This document shows positions 1,596 to 17,590 of a DNA stretch of 64,000 bases, one piece after another. Made by a program: the position numbers and the translations under genes. Location of the stretch: NCBI GenBank assembly GCA_963803575.1, contig CAWDMW010000002.1, positions 799,509 to 863,508 of the forward strand, given 5' to 3'. This DNA comes from an uncultured Alphaproteobacteria bacterium. GTDB lineage: Bacteria; Pseudomonadota; Alphaproteobacteria; Rickettsiales; UBA998. Numbering within the stretch: the first letter of the stretch is position 1; each line of letters begins with the position of its first letter. The notes beneath the pieces were generated by a model, which saw only the letters and a program-made list of their open reading frames with translations, was not told the origin of the DNA and made no database searches.

Positions 1596-3188
1596 ATGGC
1601 AACACCTTATATTTATTTATATGATTCCACCTTGCGTGATGGTTCGCAAATGCGTGGAGTGGATTTTACGGTATCTGACAAGATTGCGATTGCGCGCGCT
1701 CTTGACATGCTTGGAGTGGATTTTGTTGAAGGGGGATGGCCCGGTGCCAATCCAAAAGATGACGCATTTTTTGATGCTCCTCCTGAATTATCTCACGCGC
1801 AGCTAACCGCCTTTGGCATGACGCGCCGGTCAGGATATTCGGCGGCAAATGATCCCACACTTAACAGCTTAGTTAATCAGCCTGTGCCACATTTATGTCT
1901 GGTCGGAAAAAGCTGGGACTTTCATATTGATACTGCGCTGAATATCTCTGTTGAAGAGAACGAAGCGCTGATCCATGATTCCATTGCTTATGCTACCCAG
2001 GAGGGTAAGCACGTTATGTTTGACGCGGAACATTTCTTTGATGGGTATAAGGCAAATCCCAATGTTGCTATGCAAATGATTCTGGCCGCTAAAAATGCCG
2101 GAGCCACCTGGGTGGTGTTGTGTGATACGAATGGTGGCAGTATGCCAGATGAGATTTACCGCATTGTGACAGAGGTGACGCAACATGTGGATGGCAGTAT
2201 GTTAGGTATTCATTGCCATAACGATACAGGGCAGGCAGTGGCCAATTCGCTGGCAGCAGTGCGCGCCGGAGTGCGGCAGGTGCAGGGAACGGTGAATGGG
2301 TTGGGCGAGCGATGTGGCAATGCTGATCTGCTTAGCGTCATTCCAACGCTGATGCTGAAAATGCAAATGGATACTGGTGTCTCCATGCAGCAACTCACCC
2401 GCCTGACTGACCTTTCGCGTATGGTGGATGATCGGTTAAGTCGTAGCCCTGATCCGCAAGCGCCTTACGTTGGTAGTGCGGCCTTCGCCCATAAAGGCGG
2501 GTTGCATGTGTCTGCTATGGCAAAAAATACGGCGTCCTATGAGCATATTGATCCGTCACTGGTGGGAAATACTCGCCAGATTTTGGTGTCTGACAAGGCA
2601 GGACGCGCGAATATTTTGTCACGGCTGCAAGATTGTGGTGTCACTATTCATGATGAGGCACGTGTGATGTCGCTGGTGCAAATGGTGAAAGACCGTGAAA
2701 CAGAAGGGTATGCTTACGAAGCAGCGGATGCCAGTTTTGAGTTGTTAGCACGGCGTCACTGCGAGGATGTACCGGATTATTTTGCGATGGAGAGTTTCCG
2801 CGTACTGGATGAGCGCCGCTGGAATGCGCTTAACCAGATTGTCACAATGTCAGAAGCGACCATCAAATTGCTAGTGAATCAGCAGCGTATCATGTGTGTC
2901 GGAGAAGGGAATGGCCCTGTCAATGCACTGGATAAAGCCCTGCGCAAAGCATTGTCGGGGCGGTATCCCGTACTCAACCATATGCGACTCACGGATTACA
3001 AGGTACGTATTTTGTCTTCGGAAAATGCCACCGCTGCCACTACACGCGTGTTAATTGAAAGTAGTGACCATTTAGGGCGTAGCTGGAATACAGTAGGGGT
3101 ATCAACCAATGTTATTGATGCGTCATACCATGCATTGCACGATGCCATTAGCTATATGTTGCTGAAATTTGGTGACGTTCCCGCATGA
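1596..3188 (+). CDS. cimA: citramalate synthase (LeuA/CimA family)
   Basis: N-terminus YLYDSTLRDGSQMRGVDFTVSDKIAIARALDMLGVDFVEGGWPGANPKDDAFF is the HMGL-like fold. The ~530-aa length and C-terminal LeuA-dimer-like region match CimA-type enzymes. Confidence 0.75.
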   Translation: MATPYIYLYDSTLRDGSQMRGVDFTVSDKIAIARALDMLGVDFVEGGWPGANPKDDAFFDAPPELSHAQLTAFGMTRRSGYSAANDPTLNSLVNQPVPHLCLVGKSWDFHIDTALNISVEENEALIHDSIAYATQEGKHVMFDAEHFFDGYKANPNVAMQMILAAKNAGATWVVLCDTNGGSMPDEIYRIVTEVTQHVDGSMLGIHCHNDTGQAVANSLAAVRAGVRQVQGTVNGLGERCGNADLLSVIPTLMLKMQMDTGVSMQQLTRLTDLSRMVDDRLSRSPDPQAPYVGSAAFAHKGGLHVSAMAKNTASYEHIDPSLVGNTRQILVSDKAGRANILSRLQDCGVTIHDEARVMSLVQMVKDRETEGYAYEAADASFELLARRHCEDVPDYFAMESFRVLDERRWNALNQIVTMSEATIKLLVNQQRIMCVGEGNGPVNALDKALRKALSGRYPVLNHMRLTDYKVRILSSENATAATTRVLIESSDHLGRSWNTVGVSTNVIDASYHALHDAISYMLLKFGDVPA

Positions 3189-5062: not shown

Positions 5063-5497
5063 TTAAGCCGCTTTAATGCCAAGCAAGGTATCCATCCTGT
5101 GAATCAGTGTCTTAGATGAAGAAATATCCTTAACCACATAATCCGTTGCTCCGCACATCATTGCCTTTTTGCGTACCTGCTTGTCATCTGTGCCGCTATA
5201 GACAAGTATGGGGGTGAACGGAGATTCTGCATGAATGGCTGCTACCGTTGCGCTGCCACGAATATCCAGCAAATTCAGGTCAAGAATGATAATATCATAT
5301 TTTCGCATATCCAAAGCATCCAAAGCATCCACCATGCGTGGAACAACGGTTACATGAAAAGGATTGCGGTGACTGGTATGAATCAGTGTTTCCATCAGGA
5401 ATGCATCACTATGATTATCTTCAACCAGCAAAACTGCGGGAAATGACAGTGACAATGGTTTGTTTAGCTGAGTTGAGAGGTGTGTTACCGGAGACAT
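5063..5497 (-). CDS. single-domain response regulator (REC only), last gene of the kinase/receiver array
   Basis: VLLVEDNHSDAF...YDIIILDLNLLDIRG...ILVYSGT...DYVVKD carries the acidic pocket, phospho-Asp, Thr/Ser and Lys of a receiver. There is no output domain. Confidence 0.85.
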   Translation of the reverse strand: MSPVTHLSTQLNKPLSLSFPAVLLVEDNHSDAFLMETLIHTSHRNPFHVTVVPRMVDALDALDMRKYDIIILDLNLLDIRGSATVAAIHAESPFTPILVYSGTDDKQVRKKAMMCGATDYVVKDISSSKTLIHRMDTLLGIKAA

Positions 5498-5595
5498 GAA
5501 AGTAATAATGCAATAAAAAGCTATTTAATAGATGTCTAGCATATCCCTCATACATTGATATTGCTCTAAGGCTTTACTAAAGAACGGTAAATATT

Positions 5596-6552
5596 CTAGC
5601 CAACTTGGCTATTCGGTTCGTTGTCACAATCAGAGATAATATAGCTGCTACCAACTTTTGATTTTGCCCGATACATTGCCTGATCCGCATGTTGTACAAC
5701 CACATCCCGTTTCGCATATTCCTGTGCCGTACAAAAGCGAATACCAATACTGATACCAATAGAGAAGCTTTTACCGCTTACAGGGAAGGGTTGCTTAAAG
5801 AGTTCAGTGATTTTTTGTGCTGCCATCTCTGCATCGTAAAGTGATGCCATGTTTTCCAATAAGATAGCAAACTCATCGCCGCCAAAGCGTGCAGCCGTAT
5901 CATAAGGGCGGATGCAGTCTTTTAGGCGCTTTGCTACCAGTTTGAGCAAACTGTCTCCTGCTGCATGACCATAGCGATCATTGATTTGTTTAAAGCCATC
6001 CAGATCAATAAAGAATACGGCAATATTACCACCTTGTCGCTTCATTTTTGCCAGTGACATATCAAGCCGACTCTCAAACAGCATCCGGTTGGCCAGCCCT
6101 GTCAACATGTCGTAATTAGCACGTGTAATAAGTACTCCTTCAAACTGTTTTCTTAAGATAGCAAACTGAATGGCACGCGATATACGGTGGCCGTCCAGAT
6201 CATCTTTAAATAGGTAATCCTGTGCGCCTTGCTCAATGGCGGCCAGTGCAATACTTTCATCTTTATGAGCAGTTAGGAAAATGATAGGGGATTTGGGTGC
6301 CATATTTTGAAGGCTATTCAGTCCGGTAAAGCCAACTACGTCAGGCAAAGAGCGATCAAGCAGAATGACATCAAAGTCGGATTCTGCTTCAGCAATTGCT
6401 GTAATGGCTGCGGATAGATGAATGGCACGGGTAATGGTATGTGATTCTGGCATCACATCGTACAAAGCGCGCTGAATCAGAATCGCGTCGCCTTTGGAAT
6501 CCTCAACTAATAGGATGTTTAGTGGATCACTGGAGGATGTTATGCGTAGCAT
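5596..6552 (-). CDS. response regulator-diguanylate cyclase (REC-GGDEF)
   Basis: N-terminal receiver (ILLVEDSKGDA...VILLDRSLPD...FLTAH...YLFKD). C-terminal GGDEF domain with an intact GGDEF motif (ARFGGDEFAILL) and an RxxD I-site five residues upstream (RPYD-TAARF-GGDEF). Confidence 0.9.
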   Translation of the reverse strand: MLRITSSSDPLNILLVEDSKGDAILIQRALYDVMPESHTITRAIHLSAAITAIAEAESDFDVILLDRSLPDVVGFTGLNSLQNMAPKSPIIFLTAHKDESIALAAIEQGAQDYLFKDDLDGHRISRAIQFAILRKQFEGVLITRANYDMLTGLANRMLFESRLDMSLAKMKRQGGNIAVFFIDLDGFKQINDRYGHAAGDSLLKLVAKRLKDCIRPYDTAARFGGDEFAILLENMASLYDAEMAAQKITELFKQPFPVSGKSFSIGISIGIRFCTAQEYAKRDVVVQHADQAMYRAKSKVGSSYIISDCDNEPNSQVG

Positions 6553-7255
6553 AGGCTTGTTCTTTGGCTAAGGTGAAATAAAAAATGGTGCCTTGAATGG
6601 TTTCATCATCTTCAACAGGAACGCACCAGATGTTTCCATGATGTTGCTGAACGATCTTTTTTGCAAGGGCTAATCCCATACCAATTCCGGATTGTTCATG
6701 GTAGCTATGAAGCCGTTGAAAAAGCCCGAAAATAAAGTCTTGTACCTGTGGTTCAATGCCAACGCCATTATCCTTTACTGAGCATTCCCAGTAGGCATCA
6801 CGATCTTCTATGTCAATATGAATGCAGGGGGTACGTTCCGGGTGCCGATAAGATAACGCATTGGTAAATAAAATAGTGAATAACGACTTTAACAAAGGTG
6901 CGCTTGCGTAAAGCTGTGGCAAGGGTTGTGAATACGTGATGGTGGCCTCGCTTGTGGCCAGATGATGGATGCAATGCTCTATGACTGACTGAGTATCCAC
7001 GGTGTCATAATGGTGAGCAACCGTGTTCAGGCGCGAATATTCCAGCAATGACTGCATCATATGCTGTAGTTTCTGGCCGTTTTCTATAATCATATCAAGA
7101 TATAGCTGGCTTCTCTCACTAATATGTTGTGCCTCGTCCTGCTGTAGCAGCTTGGAAAACTCAACCATTGCACGTACAGGTGCGCTCAAGTCGTGAGAAA
7201 CGCTATAGGCATAGTCTTTAAACTCCTGTAAGACATATTGGGATGAGCCAGACAT
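6527..7255 (-). CDS. sensorless histidine kinase core (DHp + CA only), HK3
   Basis: I moved the start to the internal ATG at 7255, 2 nt after the upstream stop. The longer ORF-track start would overlap the upstream gene. H-box SVSHDLSAPVRAM lies about 20 aa from the N-terminus. N-box FTNALSYR, G1 DNGVGI and G2 GIGMGLA are present. No PAS/GAF/TM input domain. Confidence 0.85.
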   Translation of the reverse strand: MSGSSQYVLQEFKDYAYSVSHDLSAPVRAMVEFSKLLQQDEAQHISERSQLYLDMIIENGQKLQHMMQSLLEYSRLNTVAHHYDTVDTQSVIEHCIHHLATSEATITYSQPLPQLYASAPLLKSLFTILFTNALSYRHPERTPCIHIDIEDRDAYWECSVKDNGVGIEPQVQDFIFGLFQRLHSYHEQSGIGMGLALAKKIVQQHHGNIWCVPVEDDETIQGTIFYFTLAKEQAYATHNILQ

Positions 7256-7257
7256 CG

Positions 7258-7755
7258 TTAGAAAGCGTGTGAAGGTGAAAACATCTGTGAGATACTGTGA
7301 TCGGGAAGCAGCATATATTGTAGCCAAAATCCATGCATTTGTGTTGCCAGATTTTGATAATCTGACAGTGAAGCTGGCTTTACCACGCAGGCATTCGCGT
7401 ATAGATCATAACTTCGTTTGACATCTTGGGGAGTAGAAGAACCTGACAGAATAATGACGGGTATTGACTTTAGTGATAAGCTGTTTTTGATGGTAGCCAA
7501 CACATCATGGCCGTCAATGCCGGAGAGTTTAAGGTCAAGCAAGATCAGGTCAGGTGTTTCAAGTACATTATGTTCACCCTGTTTTCTCAACATTTCAATC
7601 GCGAGTTCTCCTGAATCCGCAACAGTGAAATGCACGTCAATCGCATTATCAGCAAACGCACGTTTCAGGAGTAATGCATCACTAGTATTATCCTCTACAA
7701 GCAGTATATGCAGGGGTTTTTTGGATGAGAGGGAATGATATAGTGCATCTGTCAT
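7258..7755 (-). CDS. single-domain response regulator (Rcp1-like REC), REC-c
   Basis: Internal ATG at 7755 forms an ATGA overlap with the stop of the upstream kinase. ILLVEDNTSDALLLKRAF...LILLDLKLSGIDG...VIILSGS...ANACVVKP. Confidence 0.85.
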   Translation of the reverse strand: MTDALYHSLSSKKPLHILLVEDNTSDALLLKRAFADNAIDVHFTVADSGELAIEMLRKQGEHNVLETPDLILLDLKLSGIDGHDVLATIKNSLSLKSIPVIILSGSSTPQDVKRSYDLYANACVVKPASLSDYQNLATQMHGFWLQYMLLPDHSISQMFSPSHAF

Positions 7756-8513
7756 ACTGTATTTTTGCCATGAGAAGGTTGAGGAAGTGTTAAATAGAAG
7801 CTGCTTCCCATACCAAAAGTGGACTTTACGCTTAAACTGCCACCATGGAGCTTCGCTATACGATAACATATGGCCAGCCCCATTCCTGTGCCGGATATAT
7901 GTTCCCAGCTATGTAAGCGTCTGAATGGTAAAAAAATATGATCGGCGAACTCTGGGTTGATGCCAATACCGTTATCGGTACAGTAAATACACCAATATGT
8001 TGACTCTGGGGAGCTAACTAATTCAGCACCTAACGTAATGTTGAGCGCACCTGAACTCGCCCTGTATAAGATTGCGTTGGAAAGTAAATGGTAAAAGACC
8101 AATTGTAATTGTTGTGGGTTGCTTTCTATCATTGGCAATGAATCGCAAGTAATGATTGTATCGTCCGGGTACGCTGGCAGATGTGATGAAGATAGAATCG
8201 AATCGACTATCATCTTTGTATCAATAAGTACCTTGTGGGAAGCATGGTTTTCCAGAAGCAGATATTGCAAATATTCGTCATTCATTTTACGAATACGTTT
8301 GCCGGCATCGTGAATAATGGCCAGATATTCCTGTCCTTCCTCGTTTAAAGCTTCACCATAATCCTGCTGCAATATGTCACTAAACGCCATAATCATACGG
8401 GTTGCTTCCTGCATATCGTGTGACACCAGATAGGTATAATGTTCTAACAACCCTTTTGTGTCACTGGCTATTGCAGGAATGGTTCCTGGAACGTTATCTT
8501 GAGAAAGATTCAT
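7752..8513 (-). CDS. sensorless histidine kinase core (DHp + CA only), HK2
   Basis: H-box LVSHDMQEATRMI lies about 30 aa from the N-terminus. N-box LLSNAILYR, G1 DNGIGI, F IFLPF and G2 GTGMGLA are present. No input domain and no TM segment. The start is 6 nt after the upstream REC stop. Confidence 0.85.
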   Translation of the reverse strand: MNLSQDNVPGTIPAIASDTKGLLEHYTYLVSHDMQEATRMIMAFSDILQQDYGEALNEEGQEYLAIIHDAGKRIRKMNDEYLQYLLLENHASHKVLIDTKMIVDSILSSSHLPAYPDDTIITCDSLPMIESNPQQLQLVFYHLLSNAILYRASSGALNITLGAELVSSPESTYWCIYCTDNGIGINPEFADHIFLPFRRLHSWEHISGTGMGLAICYRIAKLHGGSLSVKSTFGMGSSFYLTLPQPSHGKNTV

Positions 8514-8519
8514 GATGTA

Positions 8520-8999
8520 TCAGCCAGGCAATGGGTATGCATGATGATTAATACGTTGTGGATGTATCGTGAATGCGGTATTTATGGCGTGTTGAAGGTC
8601 TTTGGACATCAACCATTGCTTATTTAGGTAGCAATGCACACCGTAAGCAATAGCGCTTTCCTGAATAAGCTCGTCACACATGCCTGTCACAAAAATGATG
8701 GGTGGAAGTGAGGCGTAGGTTGCTTTCAAAGTGTCAAGCAGTTGAAAGCCATCCCCGTCTCCCATAATAAAATCCATGATGATACATTGAGGCATATCTT
8801 GTGCAAAAACGTCCAGTGACGCCGCTATCGTGTGTGCCTCAATACAGCGGTAGTGTGAACCATAGGCAATACGTATCCATGATTGATACAGCAATTGATC
8901 GCTATGACTATCTTCAATAATCAGAATAGTTTTTCCTGTGTCTGAATTAGTGTCAGAATATGGTGGGTTCAGATGTTCTTCGATAGTGAGATGCTGCAT
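8520..8999 (-). CDS. single-domain response regulator, REC-b
   Basis: ILIIEDSHSDQ...CIIMDFIMGDGDG...IIFVTGM...YLNKQ are the receiver signature residues. No output domain. Confidence 0.8.
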   Translation of the reverse strand: MQHLTIEEHLNPPYSDTNSDTGKTILIIEDSHSDQLLYQSWIRIAYGSHYRCIEAHTIAASLDVFAQDMPQCIIMDFIMGDGDGFQLLDTLKATYASLPPIIFVTGMCDELIQESAIAYGVHCYLNKQWLMSKDLQHAINTAFTIHPQRINHHAYPLPG

Positions 9000-9084
9000 A
9001 AAAATGTAACCATAAACTGTTATGATAGGATCTTAACATAGTATAGTTAATAATTAACCTTGTTAATGTTTATAATTAGTTAAG

Positions 9085-9516
9085 TTAATAGATCATGTGT
9101 GTTGTATCAGAATTTAACATGTGCTGAATCAGCACCTGCATATTAACGGAAGAGGTTAAGTCCTGTTTGAGCGTAAACCGCATGGCTCTGCTTTCTCGTA
9201 CCTGATGCATAAGTTGGGAGTCTGCTACGCTGGATACAATGACAATAGGTAGGGGTTGCCCGCTATCCTGATATCTGGGAAGCTGGCTTAACATATGTAC
9301 CAACTGTATTCCTGTACGACCCGGCATATTATAGTCTACAAACGCGCAGTCAACATGGTGTGCACTATAAATGCTTATTGCTTCGTTAGAACTTTGTGCT
9401 GTCATGCAGTGGTATTTCCATTCACACTGGATGTTTTCAATTTGATCCTGAAGTAAAAACAAGTCACCAGGGTTGTCATCTACTAACAAAATTGTTTTAG
9501 TATTGCTTCCTATCAT
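9085..9516 (-). CDS. single-domain response regulator, REC-a
   Basis: ILLVDDNPGDLFLL...CAFVDYNMPGRTG...IVIVSSV...FTLKQD. Receiver only. Confidence 0.8.
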   Translation of the reverse strand: MIGSNTKTILLVDDNPGDLFLLQDQIENIQCEWKYHCMTAQSSNEAISIYSAHHVDCAFVDYNMPGRTGIQLVHMLSQLPRYQDSGQPLPIVIVSSVADSQLMHQVRESRAMRFTLKQDLTSSVNMQVLIQHMLNSDTTHMIY

Positions 9517-9570
9517 AGTTGTTTCATTATATGATATAAGTTGTTTAGCAATAATTAATGGAGATGCTAA

Positions 9571-11094
9571 TTAAGTCGGAGTTTTGGACAGGTTTTTGGA
9601 AATTGTGAAGTGAAATGTACTTCCTGATCCTTCTTCGGATTCTATCCATATCGTTCCCTGATGACGCAGGGCAATTTTTTTGCAGATGGCTAGCCCGATG
9701 CCATTGCCTATATATTCCGCGCGCGTATGAAGCCGTTTAAACACTTCAAATAAGGTATCTTTTTGATCCGCTGGAATACCGATACCGTTATCAGCGACAG
9801 CAAAATGCCAGCAATCTAGTAGTTCTTTACACGATACGGTAACAGTAGGGCGACGATTCTCAGGCTGATATTTTAAACCATTGGTTATTAAGTTCATGAA
9901 TAACTGATACATCTGAGTTTTGTTGCAATGGAGGGTGGGAAGCTCTGCGGCAGATATATGTGCATCTTTCTTTTGAATGGATGTAATCAGATCATCCTGG
10001 ATTTGATTAATGACCTGATTAAGATCGGCTTTCTGGAATGTGCTGATATCGTGATCTACGCTACAATATTTTAAGATACTGGCGATGAGTTCCTGTCCTC
10101 GTGAAGCGCCAGATTTAAGAAAGTGAAAATATTTTGCGGCTTTCTCATCGTTTATCAGATGCGTCTCTAAATGCTTTTCCAGCATTTCGCTAAAGCTTGC
10201 AATCATACGAAGCGGCTCTTGCAAATCATGCGAGCAAATATAGGCAAAGCGCATCAGTTCTTCGTTTGAATGCTGCAAGCGGGAAATAAGTGTTTCACGC
10301 TGCGTGACATCCTGCGATACTCCTAGAATAAATGGTTTGCCGTTCACATCTTCAAAGCGTACTTTCTCAGTAAATAACGTGCGTTTGGAGCCGTTTGGCA
10401 TGGTCAGTGTTTCCGTGGTTTCTGAATAGCCCTCTTTAAAGGCTATGCGATCCATTGCCAGAAACTCATTTGCTTCTGCTGGGTTATAACGCTCCAGTGT
10501 AGTATAGCCAATCACACGGTCTTGCTGTTCCTCGGGGTAATTATTGATGAATGCCTGATTAGCCTGTACGATGGTGAAATCTTCTGCTTTAACAAAAATA
10601 GAGACAGGGTTATAGTCCATAATAAGCTGTAGAAAGGACTGTGATTTTATTAGCTCTTCTTTAGTGCGATTAAGTTCCTCATGCTGCTCTTTTTCGCGTA
10701 TCACAATGTCAGTAACATCTTGAAAAATACCAAAGAGTTGTAGTATTTTTCCGTGGTGATCCTGAAGACACTTCCCTTTGGAATTGACATAACGCATTTC
10801 TCCGCAGGGGCGAATAATGCGCAGGTTAGTAAAGGAAAATCCTTCCCCTGTTTCAATAGCTTTCTGTACGTTATGCTTGACCACGTCCTGATCGTCAGGG
10901 TGGTAGAAAGTGATAGCTGACTCTGTTTCAGGATAATAATTAAAGGCGTTTACGCCGTGGATCAGGTATATCTCTGGTGACCATTCCAAAGTGTTCTTGG
11001 CAAGATCAAGGCGCCAATATCCCATATGTGCCAACTGGCCGGCCATTTCCAGATATTGGCTTTTTTGACATAATTCGAGATATAGAGAATCCAT
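9571..11094 (-). CDS. cytoplasmic PAS-PAS histidine kinase, HK1
   Basis: Two PAS-like modules (GYWRLDLAKNTLEWSPEIYLIHG...GIFQDVTD and NPVSIFVKAEDFTIVQANQAF...GVSQDVTQRE). H-box ICSHDLQEPLRMI, N-box ITNGLKY, G1 DNGIGI and G2 GNGIGLA are present. No TM segments. Confidence 0.9.
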   Translation of the reverse strand: MDSLYLELCQKSQYLEMAGQLAHMGYWRLDLAKNTLEWSPEIYLIHGVNAFNYYPETESAITFYHPDDQDVVKHNVQKAIETGEGFSFTNLRIIRPCGEMRYVNSKGKCLQDHHGKILQLFGIFQDVTDIVIREKEQHEELNRTKEELIKSQSFLQLIMDYNPVSIFVKAEDFTIVQANQAFINNYPEEQQDRVIGYTTLERYNPAEANEFLAMDRIAFKEGYSETTETLTMPNGSKRTLFTEKVRFEDVNGKPFILGVSQDVTQRETLISRLQHSNEELMRFAYICSHDLQEPLRMIASFSEMLEKHLETHLINDEKAAKYFHFLKSGASRGQELIASILKYCSVDHDISTFQKADLNQVINQIQDDLITSIQKKDAHISAAELPTLHCNKTQMYQLFMNLITNGLKYQPENRRPTVTVSCKELLDCWHFAVADNGIGIPADQKDTLFEVFKRLHTRAEYIGNGIGLAICKKIALRHQGTIWIESEEGSGSTFHFTISKNLSKTPT

Positions 11095-11212: not shown

Positions 11213-11602
11213 CTAGCGCTGTAGTGATGTTTCCTGAGCTGACTCCTTAACAGTTTCAGTCCAGTTTCCTATGACGGGTTTTGCTTGCGTTGGCTGAGTC
11301 ATTGCTGCCAATTCTGGATATTGCTCGTTAAGCGTGGCTGAAGCCTGTTGAAGTTCATCACGACTTATTGCTCCGCCTGCACCTAAGCCCTGAAGCTGTT
11401 GCATGACTAAGTCGGCATGTTCGTGATCGAAGCTGGCTGCAACAATAGCATTGTTTCCAGCTATGATATCACTAGCATTATCAGGAATTGAAGAATTGCC
11501 CATAGAGAAGCTGACTTTACCGTCATCAAACGTGATGGTTGTTACCGTCTTTCCCTGTTCTTCCAAGGCATTGACTGTATCCAGTACTTGTGTTGAATCC
11601 AT
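11213..11602 (-). CDS. hypothetical protein (129 aa)
   Basis: ORF with a good SD (ttAGGAGtagatcata-ATG), on the same strand and immediately upstream of HK1. No motif recognised. Confidence 0.55.
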   Translation of the reverse strand: MDSTQVLDTVNALEEQGKTVTTITFDDGKVSFSMGNSSIPDNASDIIAGNNAIVAASFDHEHADLVMQQLQGLGAGGAISRDELQQASATLNEQYPELAAMTQPTQAKPVIGNWTETVKESAQETSLQR

Positions 11603-11621: not shown

Positions 11622-11861
11622 CTATGCGCGTTTCAGTTGCTGTACGCTGGTGTCCATTGCCCAAAAGATGACTTCCGCAAATTTGGGTGAAAATAGCTTG
11701 TTTAGCACCATGCGACGGATAGAGTCCTGAAAAGCACGTTTACTATCAGGGTTCAATGCCATGTTAACGGTAATTGCCGACAAGCCACCATCAGCCACTG
11801 GATTAGTGCATAAAATAAGGTGATTGTCAAGAATTTGTATATAATCACGTGGATTAAACAT
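11622..11861 (-). CDS. hypothetical protein (79 aa)
   Basis: ORF with an SD-like cAGGAcagctct-ATG, 19 nt upstream of the next ORF on the same strand. No motif recognised. Confidence 0.5.
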   Translation of the reverse strand: MFNPRDYIQILDNHLILCTNPVADGGLSAITVNMALNPDSKRAFQDSIRRMVLNKLFSPKFAEVIFWAMDTSVQQLKRA

Positions 11862-17173: not shown

Positions 17174-17590
17174 TTATGCAGCAGGCGGCTTATCATTATC
17201 TGCCATAGACTTTAGCAAATCGTAGAATTTACGGCGTAATTTTTCGTCACTGATGCTGTAATAAGCACGGACTAGCTCAAGTGTTTCGCGGCTTGAAATA
17301 CGGTCATGTTCAAAGTTACTGTCGTCTTCTGCCATGCCGCGCGAATACTCGGACATTGCTTCAACAGGTTTCTCGTAATCATCGAAGAAATAAGCAACAG
17401 ATACATTAAGGATTTTGCTAAAATCATAAATCCGACTAGAACCCATCCGGTTAACGCCCTTTTCATACTTTTGAATTTGTTGAAAGCTTACGCCAATAGC
17501 TTTACCGACAGCTTCCTGACTCATGCCCAGCATGATACGACGTTCTCTCAAACGTTTTCCTACATATATATCAACAGGATGTAATGCCAT
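17174..17590 (-). CDS. XRE-family helix-turn-helix transcriptional regulator
   Basis: VGKRLRERRIMLGMSQEAVGKAIGVSFQQIQKYEKGVNRMGSSRIYDFSKIL is a Cro/C1-type HTH. Confidence 0.8.
   Translation of the reverse strand: MALHPVDIYVGKRLRERRIMLGMSQEAVGKAIGVSFQQIQKYEKGVNRMGSSRIYDFSKILNVSVAYFFDDYEKPVEAMSEYSRGMAEDDSNFEHDRISSRETLELVRAYYSISDEKLRRKFYDLLKSMADNDKPPAA

Follow-up and report, generated by a model that had tools for sequence, protein, structure and literature searches.

Equally spaced receiver and bare kinase genes with apparently different histories in a two-component cluster of an uncultured Rickettsiales bacterium

In a 64,000-nucleotide (nt) stretch of DNA (hereafter the window; positions 799,509 to 863,508 of contig CAWDMW010000002.1, assembly GCA_963803575.1) from an uncultured alphaproteobacterium of the Rickettsiales lineage UBA998, eight two-component genes lie in a row on the minus strand (5063-11094). 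In order of transcription, they encode a sensor histidine kinase (HK1), two stand-alone receivers (REC-a and REC-b), a sensor-less kinase (HK2), a further receiver (REC-c), a second sensor-less kinase (HK3), a response regulator with a GGDEF domain (REC-GGDEF) and a trailing receiver (REC-d). The preliminary description of this DNA had proposed that the receiver encoded directly ahead of each sensor-less kinase serves as its input module. Our analysis bears this out in spirit for REC-c/HK3, for which a natural fusion and a conserved pairing were found, and speaks against it for REC-b/HK2, whose descent appears to be different. Judged by homology and gene order, REC-c and HK3 are the conserved module of receiver plus bare kinase of a cassette that occurs in many other genomes. 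A tiered pathway leading from HK2 through REC-c and HK3 to REC-GGDEF within this cassette-derived cluster has, in our estimate, about an even chance of being correct.

To describe the cassette, species-representative genomes were scanned with a family alignment, which resulted in 80 loci from Rickettsiales and other alphaproteobacterial metagenome-assembled genomes (MAGs), Gammaproteobacteria, Asticcacaulis, Colwellia relatives, Phaeobacter, Bdellovibrionales and others. A domain map was made of the scanned loci, and the counts of cores given here are over 40 non-redundant sensor-less cores from other genomes. The cassette runs in the order HTH_3-REC, sensor kinase (with PAS, CHASE-PAS or MASE1-CHASE-PAS domains), Rcp1-type single-domain receiver, sensor-less kinase core, REC-GGDEF and REC, and REC-b, HK2, REC-c, HK3, REC-GGDEF and REC-d of the window map one-to-one onto these six genes. 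For each window protein, the best match is the gene at the same position in L002, L004, L006, L011, L013, L014, L016 and L018. The neighbourhoods of three bare cores repeat the arrangement HTH_3-REC, sensor kinase, receiver of about 158-160 amino acids (aa), bare core and REC-GGDEF, and two further receiver genes trail the cassette in two of the three inspected loci (L002 and L006). A stand-alone receiver gene ends no more than 200 nt before the His codon in 33 of the 40 cores (range 49-176 nt, median 97), and REC-GGDEF follows the core in 18. With gene-caller starts, the receiver-to-core junctions of eight distinct loci measure +4, -23, +3, -4, +9, +7, +2 and +3 nt. The REC-GGDEF protein of the window shares 50-54% identity over its length with its cassette counterparts (55-69% in the receiver region), and REC-d shares 46-49% with the first trailing receiver. 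Two features of the cassette are lacking here, namely the HTH domain on the first gene (REC-b) and the sensor domain on the first kinase (HK2). A publication describing this cassette was not found by full-text searches, the only kind made.

The evidence is strongest for REC-c and HK3. Among the best 120 matches of HK3, about 85 are stand-alone cores of about 218-260 aa that consist of HisKA and HATPase_c only (about 36-50% identity), and only one carries a receiver. HK3 keeps all residues that are invariant in its family, including N132, D162, G164, G166, G192 and G194. The best matches of REC-c (41-46% identity) are in turn receivers located directly ahead of sensor-less cores. Its nearest solved structures are RcpA, Rcp1 and bacteriophytochrome response regulators (BRRs), with 6XVU, 8AVV, 5BRJ and 5IC5 also among the best PDB matches and with alignments running through the C-terminal arm to GFWLQYMLLP. 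REC-c thus has the form of an Rcp1/BRR-type regulator, a lone receiver, about 140-170 aa long, whose C-terminal extension bears the FW..LP motif, and it is not encoded beside a phytochrome (PAS-GAF-PHY) kinase.

A phmmer search with REC-c recovered P0347, a REC-HisKA-HATPase protein of 399 aa (L088, 6001-7200). Residues 8-152 of P0347 align without gaps to residues 10-154 of REC-c (42% identity), residues 167-394 align to HK3 from Met1 onward (36% identity), and the APxRxMVEFSxLLQ signature of the core family is retained. The gene for P0347 is part of a rearranged cassette: HTH_3-REC and REC flank it on one side, and REC-GGDEF begins 3 nt downstream, with a PAS kinase gene farther along. The Rosetta-stone comparison is therefore positive for this pair, since the fused protein is collinear with both REC-c and HK3 and occurs in the cassette context. 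AlphaFold2 modelling of P0347 gave a confident kinase and a confident receiver, arm helix included, and a poorly predicted linker (predicted local distance difference test, pLDDT, 43-61 at about residues 150-175 and below 50 at 161-172). The two domains are thus predicted to be joined by a disordered tether. Such a tether fits a receiver that acts by docking, which could also act in trans when separately encoded.

REC-b and HK2 appear to have reached the same arrangement by another route. All best matches of REC-b (38-50% identity, E values of 1e-27 to 1e-44) are the C-terminal receivers of HTH_3-REC proteins of about 206-228 aa at the head of the cassette, versus only 28-32% identity to the receivers of fused REC-kinases. 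In tblastn searches, the match to REC-b begins at the HTH-REC linker (residue ~73), only 22 residues precede the receiver in REC-b, and no HTH remnant was found near or upstream of the gene. An HTH_3 open reading frame (ORF) at 17174-17590 on the minus strand (138 aa), 8 kb away, was considered as the lost HTH on account of a weak similarity (E 0.002) to the HTH half of one cassette HTH_3-REC protein; this candidate was rejected, and the ORF probably encodes an unrelated XRE-type regulator. Homologues of HK2 reach 40% identity at most. The matches carry PAS, GAF, an N-terminal receiver or nothing (a receiver in 43 of 119, always N-terminal), and the closest relatives of the kinase bear PAS, REC-PAS, CHASE-PAS or REC at the N-terminus. 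The kinases syntenic to HK2 are a PAS-HK (L002), a REC-HK (P0003 in L001) and REC-PAS-HK proteins (L011, L012 and L014), and its best matches in the related loci are the REC-PAS-HK proteins and the PAS-HK of L002.

Because REC-b and HK2 share one reading frame and REC-HK and REC-PAS-HK kinases occupy the syntenic position, recent fission of a REC-(PAS)-HK gene like those in L011, L012 and L014 looked likely at first. It was rejected, as REC-b groups with the receivers of HTH_3-REC proteins and not with those of the fusions, so that the Rosetta-stone comparison is negative for REC-b and HK2. Moreover, the AlphaFold2 model of P0003 (L001, 767-1993) contains one uninterrupted helix from receiver alpha-5 through the phospho-His (residues 113-203, pLDDT 86-96), HK2-like fusions show coiled-coil columns in the alignment, and the linking helix segment is wholly absent from HK2. 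Fused REC-kinases fall into two structural classes, one with the continuous helix (P0003) and one with an arm-helix receiver and a disordered tether (P0347). The HTH_3-REC kinship of REC-b, the sensor-bearing kin of HK2 and the missing linking helix together point to an ancestral regulator and kinase that were already neighbours and have both been decapitated. On this evidence from homology, REC-b is orthologous to the receiver half of the cassette HTH_3-REC protein and has lost the HTH, and HK2 is the sensor kinase of the cassette with its sensor lost. Its ancestry, we infer, makes REC-b a phospho-acceptor neighbour of HK2 and not the detached input domain of that kinase.

The origin of REC-b from an HTH_3-REC regulator that adjoined the sensor kinase of the ancestral cassette also suits an alternative that we regard as unlikely, namely that the genes form conventional response regulator-histidine kinase operon pairs, in which the upstream receiver would be the substrate of the next kinase, or the bare kinase would be a dedicated phosphatase or sink resetting the receiver. 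The order response regulator then histidine kinase, with overlapping or near-abutting genes, is common, and RedE provides a precedent as a phosphatase acting on RedF (PMC2755868). For REC-c/HK3, however, the in-cassette fusion with its N-terminal receiver matches the regulatory-receiver architecture of ExsG, PakF and LvrB, and such pairs would leave REC-GGDEF without a dedicated kinase.

The losses in REC-b and HK2 could also reflect reductive decay, such that both would be truncated leftovers whose regulated function is slight or absent, in a small genome (a 1.76 Mb contig), and only the REC-c/HK3/REC-GGDEF part, or HK1, would still signal. The N-terminal domains of all relatives are missing from both proteins, and a word-based search for REC-b in 5.8 billion proteins returned no relative, the query only. 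HK2 departs from its family at 4 of 32 columns conserved at ≥85% (A37, which replaces the H-box Pro, L81Y, R86L and F241L), a count that lies within the 95th percentile of the family. Yet both ORFs are intact, the phospho-acceptor pocket residues of REC-b are all kept, and HK2 retains its His and all ATP-binding residues (N, G1 and G2 boxes). Decay therefore seems distinctly improbable.

In the proposed pathway, which we prefer, HK2, the kinase encoded ahead of REC-c, would phosphorylate it as Cph1 does Rcp1. This step is suggested by the gene order repeated across cassettes and by the same 4-nt overlap (-4) between sensor kinase and receiver genes in L002 and L004. REC-c would then control HK3 autokinase activity by docking in trans, and HK3 would phosphorylate REC-GGDEF, and perhaps REC-d, thereby setting the synthesis of cyclic diguanylate (c-di-GMP). 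After the loss of its sensor, HK2 might be constitutive, or it might be driven through HK1, REC-a or REC-b. The action of REC-c on HK3 may be allosteric, by analogy with ExsG, PakF and LvrB, or REC-c may be a phosphodonor to the His of the dimerization and histidine phosphotransfer (DHp) domain, as in the transfers from RedD to RedE and from SdrG to PhyT. The latter mode leads to a further alternative, a His-Asp-His-Asp phosphorelay in which the DHp His of HK3 (and of HK2) would take the phosphoryl group from the upstream receiver and pass it on, the protein being a phosphotransferase like RedE or PhyT. Sensor domains are absent from HK2 and HK3, the alternating order of transmitter (T) and receiver (R) genes, T-R-T-R, is the class for which relays were proposed (PMC3018481), and relay steps have been demonstrated for RedD to RedE (PMC2755868) and for Pak-SdrG-PhyT-PhyR (PMC5898713). 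Nevertheless, the ATP-binding residues (N box Asn, DxGxG and GxGxGL) are invariant across 39 members of the HK3 family and are kept in HK2, which points to selection on autokinase activity and favours a real autokinase, whereas RedE did not autophosphorylate. We consider the relay rather unlikely, although it and the autokinase mode are not mutually exclusive. A broader version of the proposed pathway, in which Rcp1-type receivers would be dedicated trans inputs of bare cores and a three-tier cascade would run from the PAS kinase HK1 through HK2, REC-c and HK3 to the diguanylate cyclase with tiering like that of mitogen-activated protein kinases, is doubtful at present.

Several observations weigh against a receiver-driven pathway of this kind. 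A stand-alone receiver persists in L011, L014, L052, L061, L066 and L083 although the next kinase has a fused receiver of its own, which indicates that it is not simply a detached domain. No receiver lies ahead of the core in 7 of the 40 cores, and in L012 (an alphaproteobacterial MAG, 495-2728) a REC-PAS-HK gene and, after it, a bare core are immediate neighbours, without an intervening receiver gene. The H-box Pro, kept in 98% of 237 homologues, is replaced by A37 in HK2 (window 8403-8405; SHDMQEATR versus SHDxxxPxR), and this substitution may impair the kinase. The AlphaFold2 run for P0347 was made with a single chain and an unpaired alignment (predicted TM score 0.64), so the packing of its domains is not informative and only the order or disorder of the linker can be read from it, not a reliable receiver-kinase interface. 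In addition, each kinase gene is joined to its downstream receiver gene as tightly as to the upstream one, and tight junctions are common here (≤6 nt in 14 of 37 other same-strand junctions of the window). The coupling proposed earlier as an argument for receiver-kinase partnership is therefore weak, because it does not discriminate between the upstream and the downstream receiver.

The junctions themselves are as previously described (Table 1): HK2 begins 6 nt past the REC-b stop (TGA at 8522-8520, ATG at 8513-8511, minus strand), HK2 and REC-c share an ATGA, and HK3 begins 2 nt past the REC-c stop (TAA at 7260-7258, ATG at 7255-7253, minus strand). The earlier statement that neither kinase has room for a sensor was also confirmed, the phospho-accepting His being found in the motifs VSHDM of HK2 and VSHDL of HK3, and an earlier start that would add a sensor domain is not supported, since adjacent genes close the frames upstream (the stop-to-stop ORF of HK2 opens right behind the REC-b stop). 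Across the eight genes, the gaps are 54, 85, 6, -4, 2, -26 and 98 nt. With the 26-nt overlap of HK3 and REC-GGDEF (6527-6552), five consecutive genes, REC-b to REC-GGDEF, are closely packed into a single block. Elsewhere, the core and REC-GGDEF are separated by a spacer of 66-77 nt in L002, L004 and L006 (gene-caller coordinates) and of 18 nt in L007. A Shine-Dalgarno-like motif (a 4-mer within 20 nt upstream) precedes none of the eight cluster genes, versus 19 of the window's other 51 genes; its absence does not single out the receiver-to-kinase junctions. Translational coupling of these genes is suggested by their spacing alone.

REC-b and HK2 lie in one reading frame (8511-8522), with the TGA and two codons between them, and REC-c and HK3 lie in different frames. 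Read-through at the REC-b TGA would yield a REC-kinase of 415 residues. An alternative genetic code or read-through at this codon was considered and rejected: TGA is a normal stop here (it ends 8 of 59 window genes, hisS included), and REC-b is unrelated to the receivers of the fusions.

Table 1. Genes and close junctions of the two-component cluster, in order of transcription (window coordinates)
Feature	Position	Strand	Description	Basis
HK1	9571..11094	-	PAS-PAS-HisKA-HATPase sensor kinase, 507 aa; first gene of the cluster	Pfam PAS_3, PAS_4, HisKA, HATPase_c
REC-a	9085..9516	-	stand-alone receiver, 143 aa; 54 nt past HK1	Pfam Response_reg
REC-b	8520..8999	-	stand-alone receiver, 159 aa	Pfam Response_reg only
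REC-b/HK2 junction	8514..8522	-	TGA + 6 nt (tacatc)	read from sequence
HK2	7752..8513	-	sensor-less HisKA-HATPase kinase, 253 aa, His32	Pfam HisKA + HATPase_c only
HK2 stop/REC-c start	7752..7755	-	ATGA overlap	read from sequence
REC-c	7258..7755	-	Rcp1-type single-domain receiver, 165 aa, C-terminal FWL..LP arm	Pfam Response_reg only
REC-c/HK3 junction	7253..7260	-	TAA-cg-ATG	read from sequence
HK3	6527..7255	-	sensor-less HisKA-HATPase kinase core, 242 aa, His21	Pfam HisKA + HATPase_c only
REC-GGDEF	5596..6552	-	response regulator, 318 aa; likely output	Pfam Response_reg + GGDEF
REC-d	5063..5497	-	trailing stand-alone receiver, 144 aa	Pfam

The boundaries of REC-b, HK2, REC-c and HK3 are shared by exact sequences in a public protein collection (159, 253, 165 and 242 aa, respectively). 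By alignment, the phospho-acceptor pocket (acidic pair, Asp, Thr/Ser and Lys) is complete in all five receivers; in REC-a it consists of the acidic pocket, Asp, Ser and Lys, and no close orthologue of REC-a was found among the related cassettes. The kinase cores of HK1-3 are of the phytochrome type, and the nearest solved relatives of HK3 are bacteriophytochrome kinase modules; no GAF or PHY domain was found by Pfam in any of the three. A promoter-like site precedes HK1 (11148-11120) and a terminator-like site lies at REC-d (5069-5050). Counts of such sites in the window are not above those expected from shuffled sequences, and the two sites are thus only weak hints of two transcription units. 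Two small ORFs without a Pfam match lie between hisS and HK1 on the same strand as the cluster (11213-11602, 129 aa; 11622-11861, 79 aa, both minus).

In a collection of 15 billion proteins grouped at 90% identity, nine window proteins (HisS, PrfA and the 530-aa protein from the ORF at 1596-3188 among them) were each a singleton, and all nine are encoded on one contig of 1,764,673 bp. A scan of 185,579 species-representative genomes with HisS found no close relative. The lineage is isolated, its genome is small, and the nearest counterparts of its cassette genes come from Rickettsiales and other alphaproteobacterial MAGs. An Rfam scan of the window detected two tRNAs only and no c-di-GMP riboswitch. 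On the metagenomic contig L002 (1-3200), a tyrosine-integrase-like gene (weak Pfam match), an HTH_17 gene and a Prim-Pol/VapE-like gene are found about 2.5 kb from the cassette, neighbours which hint that the cassette may travel on a mobile element.

The downstream targets of Rcp1/bacteriophytochrome-type single-domain regulators are mostly unknown. The pairing of such a receiver with a bare core, the occasional fusion of the two and the usual presence of REC-GGDEF next door offer a concrete and testable route to c-di-GMP; if it is true that Rcp1-type receivers drive bare cores, the cassette would give a general answer to the question of what Rcp1/BRR-type regulators signal to. It is also worth noting that two equally spaced pairs in one operon appear to have different histories, REC-c/HK3 being an old split module and REC-b/HK2 two decapitated genes. 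Hence, spacing alone should not be used to assign signalling partners.

The cluster is of an ordinary kind, a multi-step pathway with a putatively receiver-driven sensor-less kinase, and REC-c/HK3 is the useful lead in it; T-R-T-R loci with several tiers, and REC-kinases in fused form, are already known from ExsG, PakF, LvrB and RedCDEF. Its closest counterparts in architecture are the hybrid response regulators ExsG (Rhizobium/Agrobacterium), PakF (Sphingomonas melonis, phosphorylated by KipF), LvrB (Leptospira) and CheS3 (Rhodospirillum centenum) (PMC3899027, PMC5863495 and PMC3868531), and control of the kinase core by the phosphorylated receiver has been reported for ExsG (PMC3899027) and for PakF and LvrB (PMC5863495). 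In these proteins, as proposed here, the kinase core has a receiver ahead of it in place of a sensor; once phosphorylated by a kinase higher in the pathway, this receiver lets the core signal to another one. The likeness extends to the receivers with a complete pocket, to the phospho-accepting His and the N-, G1- and G2-box residues of HK2 and HK3, and to the existence of fused relatives, both among the matches of HK2 and, for REC-c plus HK3, in P0347. However, the receiver and kinase are separate genes here, with stop codons between them, and unlike ExsG and PakF, whose cores are of the HWE/HisKA_2 type, the present cores are phytochrome-type HisKA.

In its gene order, with kinases and receivers alternating on one strand at gaps below 200 bp, the cluster is a T-R-T-R focus. 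A survey found 262 such foci in every fusion geometry, among which the fully split T-R-T-R form was the commonest (71), and its authors suggested relays (PMC3018481). The cluster resembles RedCDEF of Myxococcus xanthus and Pak-SdrG-PhyT-PhyR of S. melonis in the succession of a kinase, a receiver, a second sensor-less kinase-like protein and a receiver. RedE and PhyT, however, are phosphotransferases or phosphatases that lack autokinase activity, whereas every ATP-binding motif is kept in HK2 and HK3, and unlike both systems the cluster comprises three tiers of kinases and ends in a diguanylate cyclase.

The single-domain receiver DivK of Caulobacter, as Paul et al. reportedly found in 2008 (cited in PMC3410866), acts in trans as an allosteric regulator of kinases. 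The proposed action of REC-c would be analogous to that of DivK on DivJ, PleC and DivL, except that these three have sensory or localisation domains of their own and are not coupled beside divK, and the families are unrelated. With the phytochrome operons (Cph1-Rcp1, BphP1-AgR-ExsG of Agrobacterium and RtBphP1-RtBRR-RtBHK of Ramlibacter), the cluster shares an Rcp1-type receiver with its arm (REC-c) and the phytochrome-type cores of HK1-3. The Ramlibacter operon has, in this order, a kinase, a single-domain receiver and a further kinase (PMC6848086), and the cluster likewise has a kinase, then a single-domain receiver, then a further kinase. Unlike these operons, it contains no PAS-GAF-PHY module, and whereas their downstream kinase has its own receiver, HK3 is bare.

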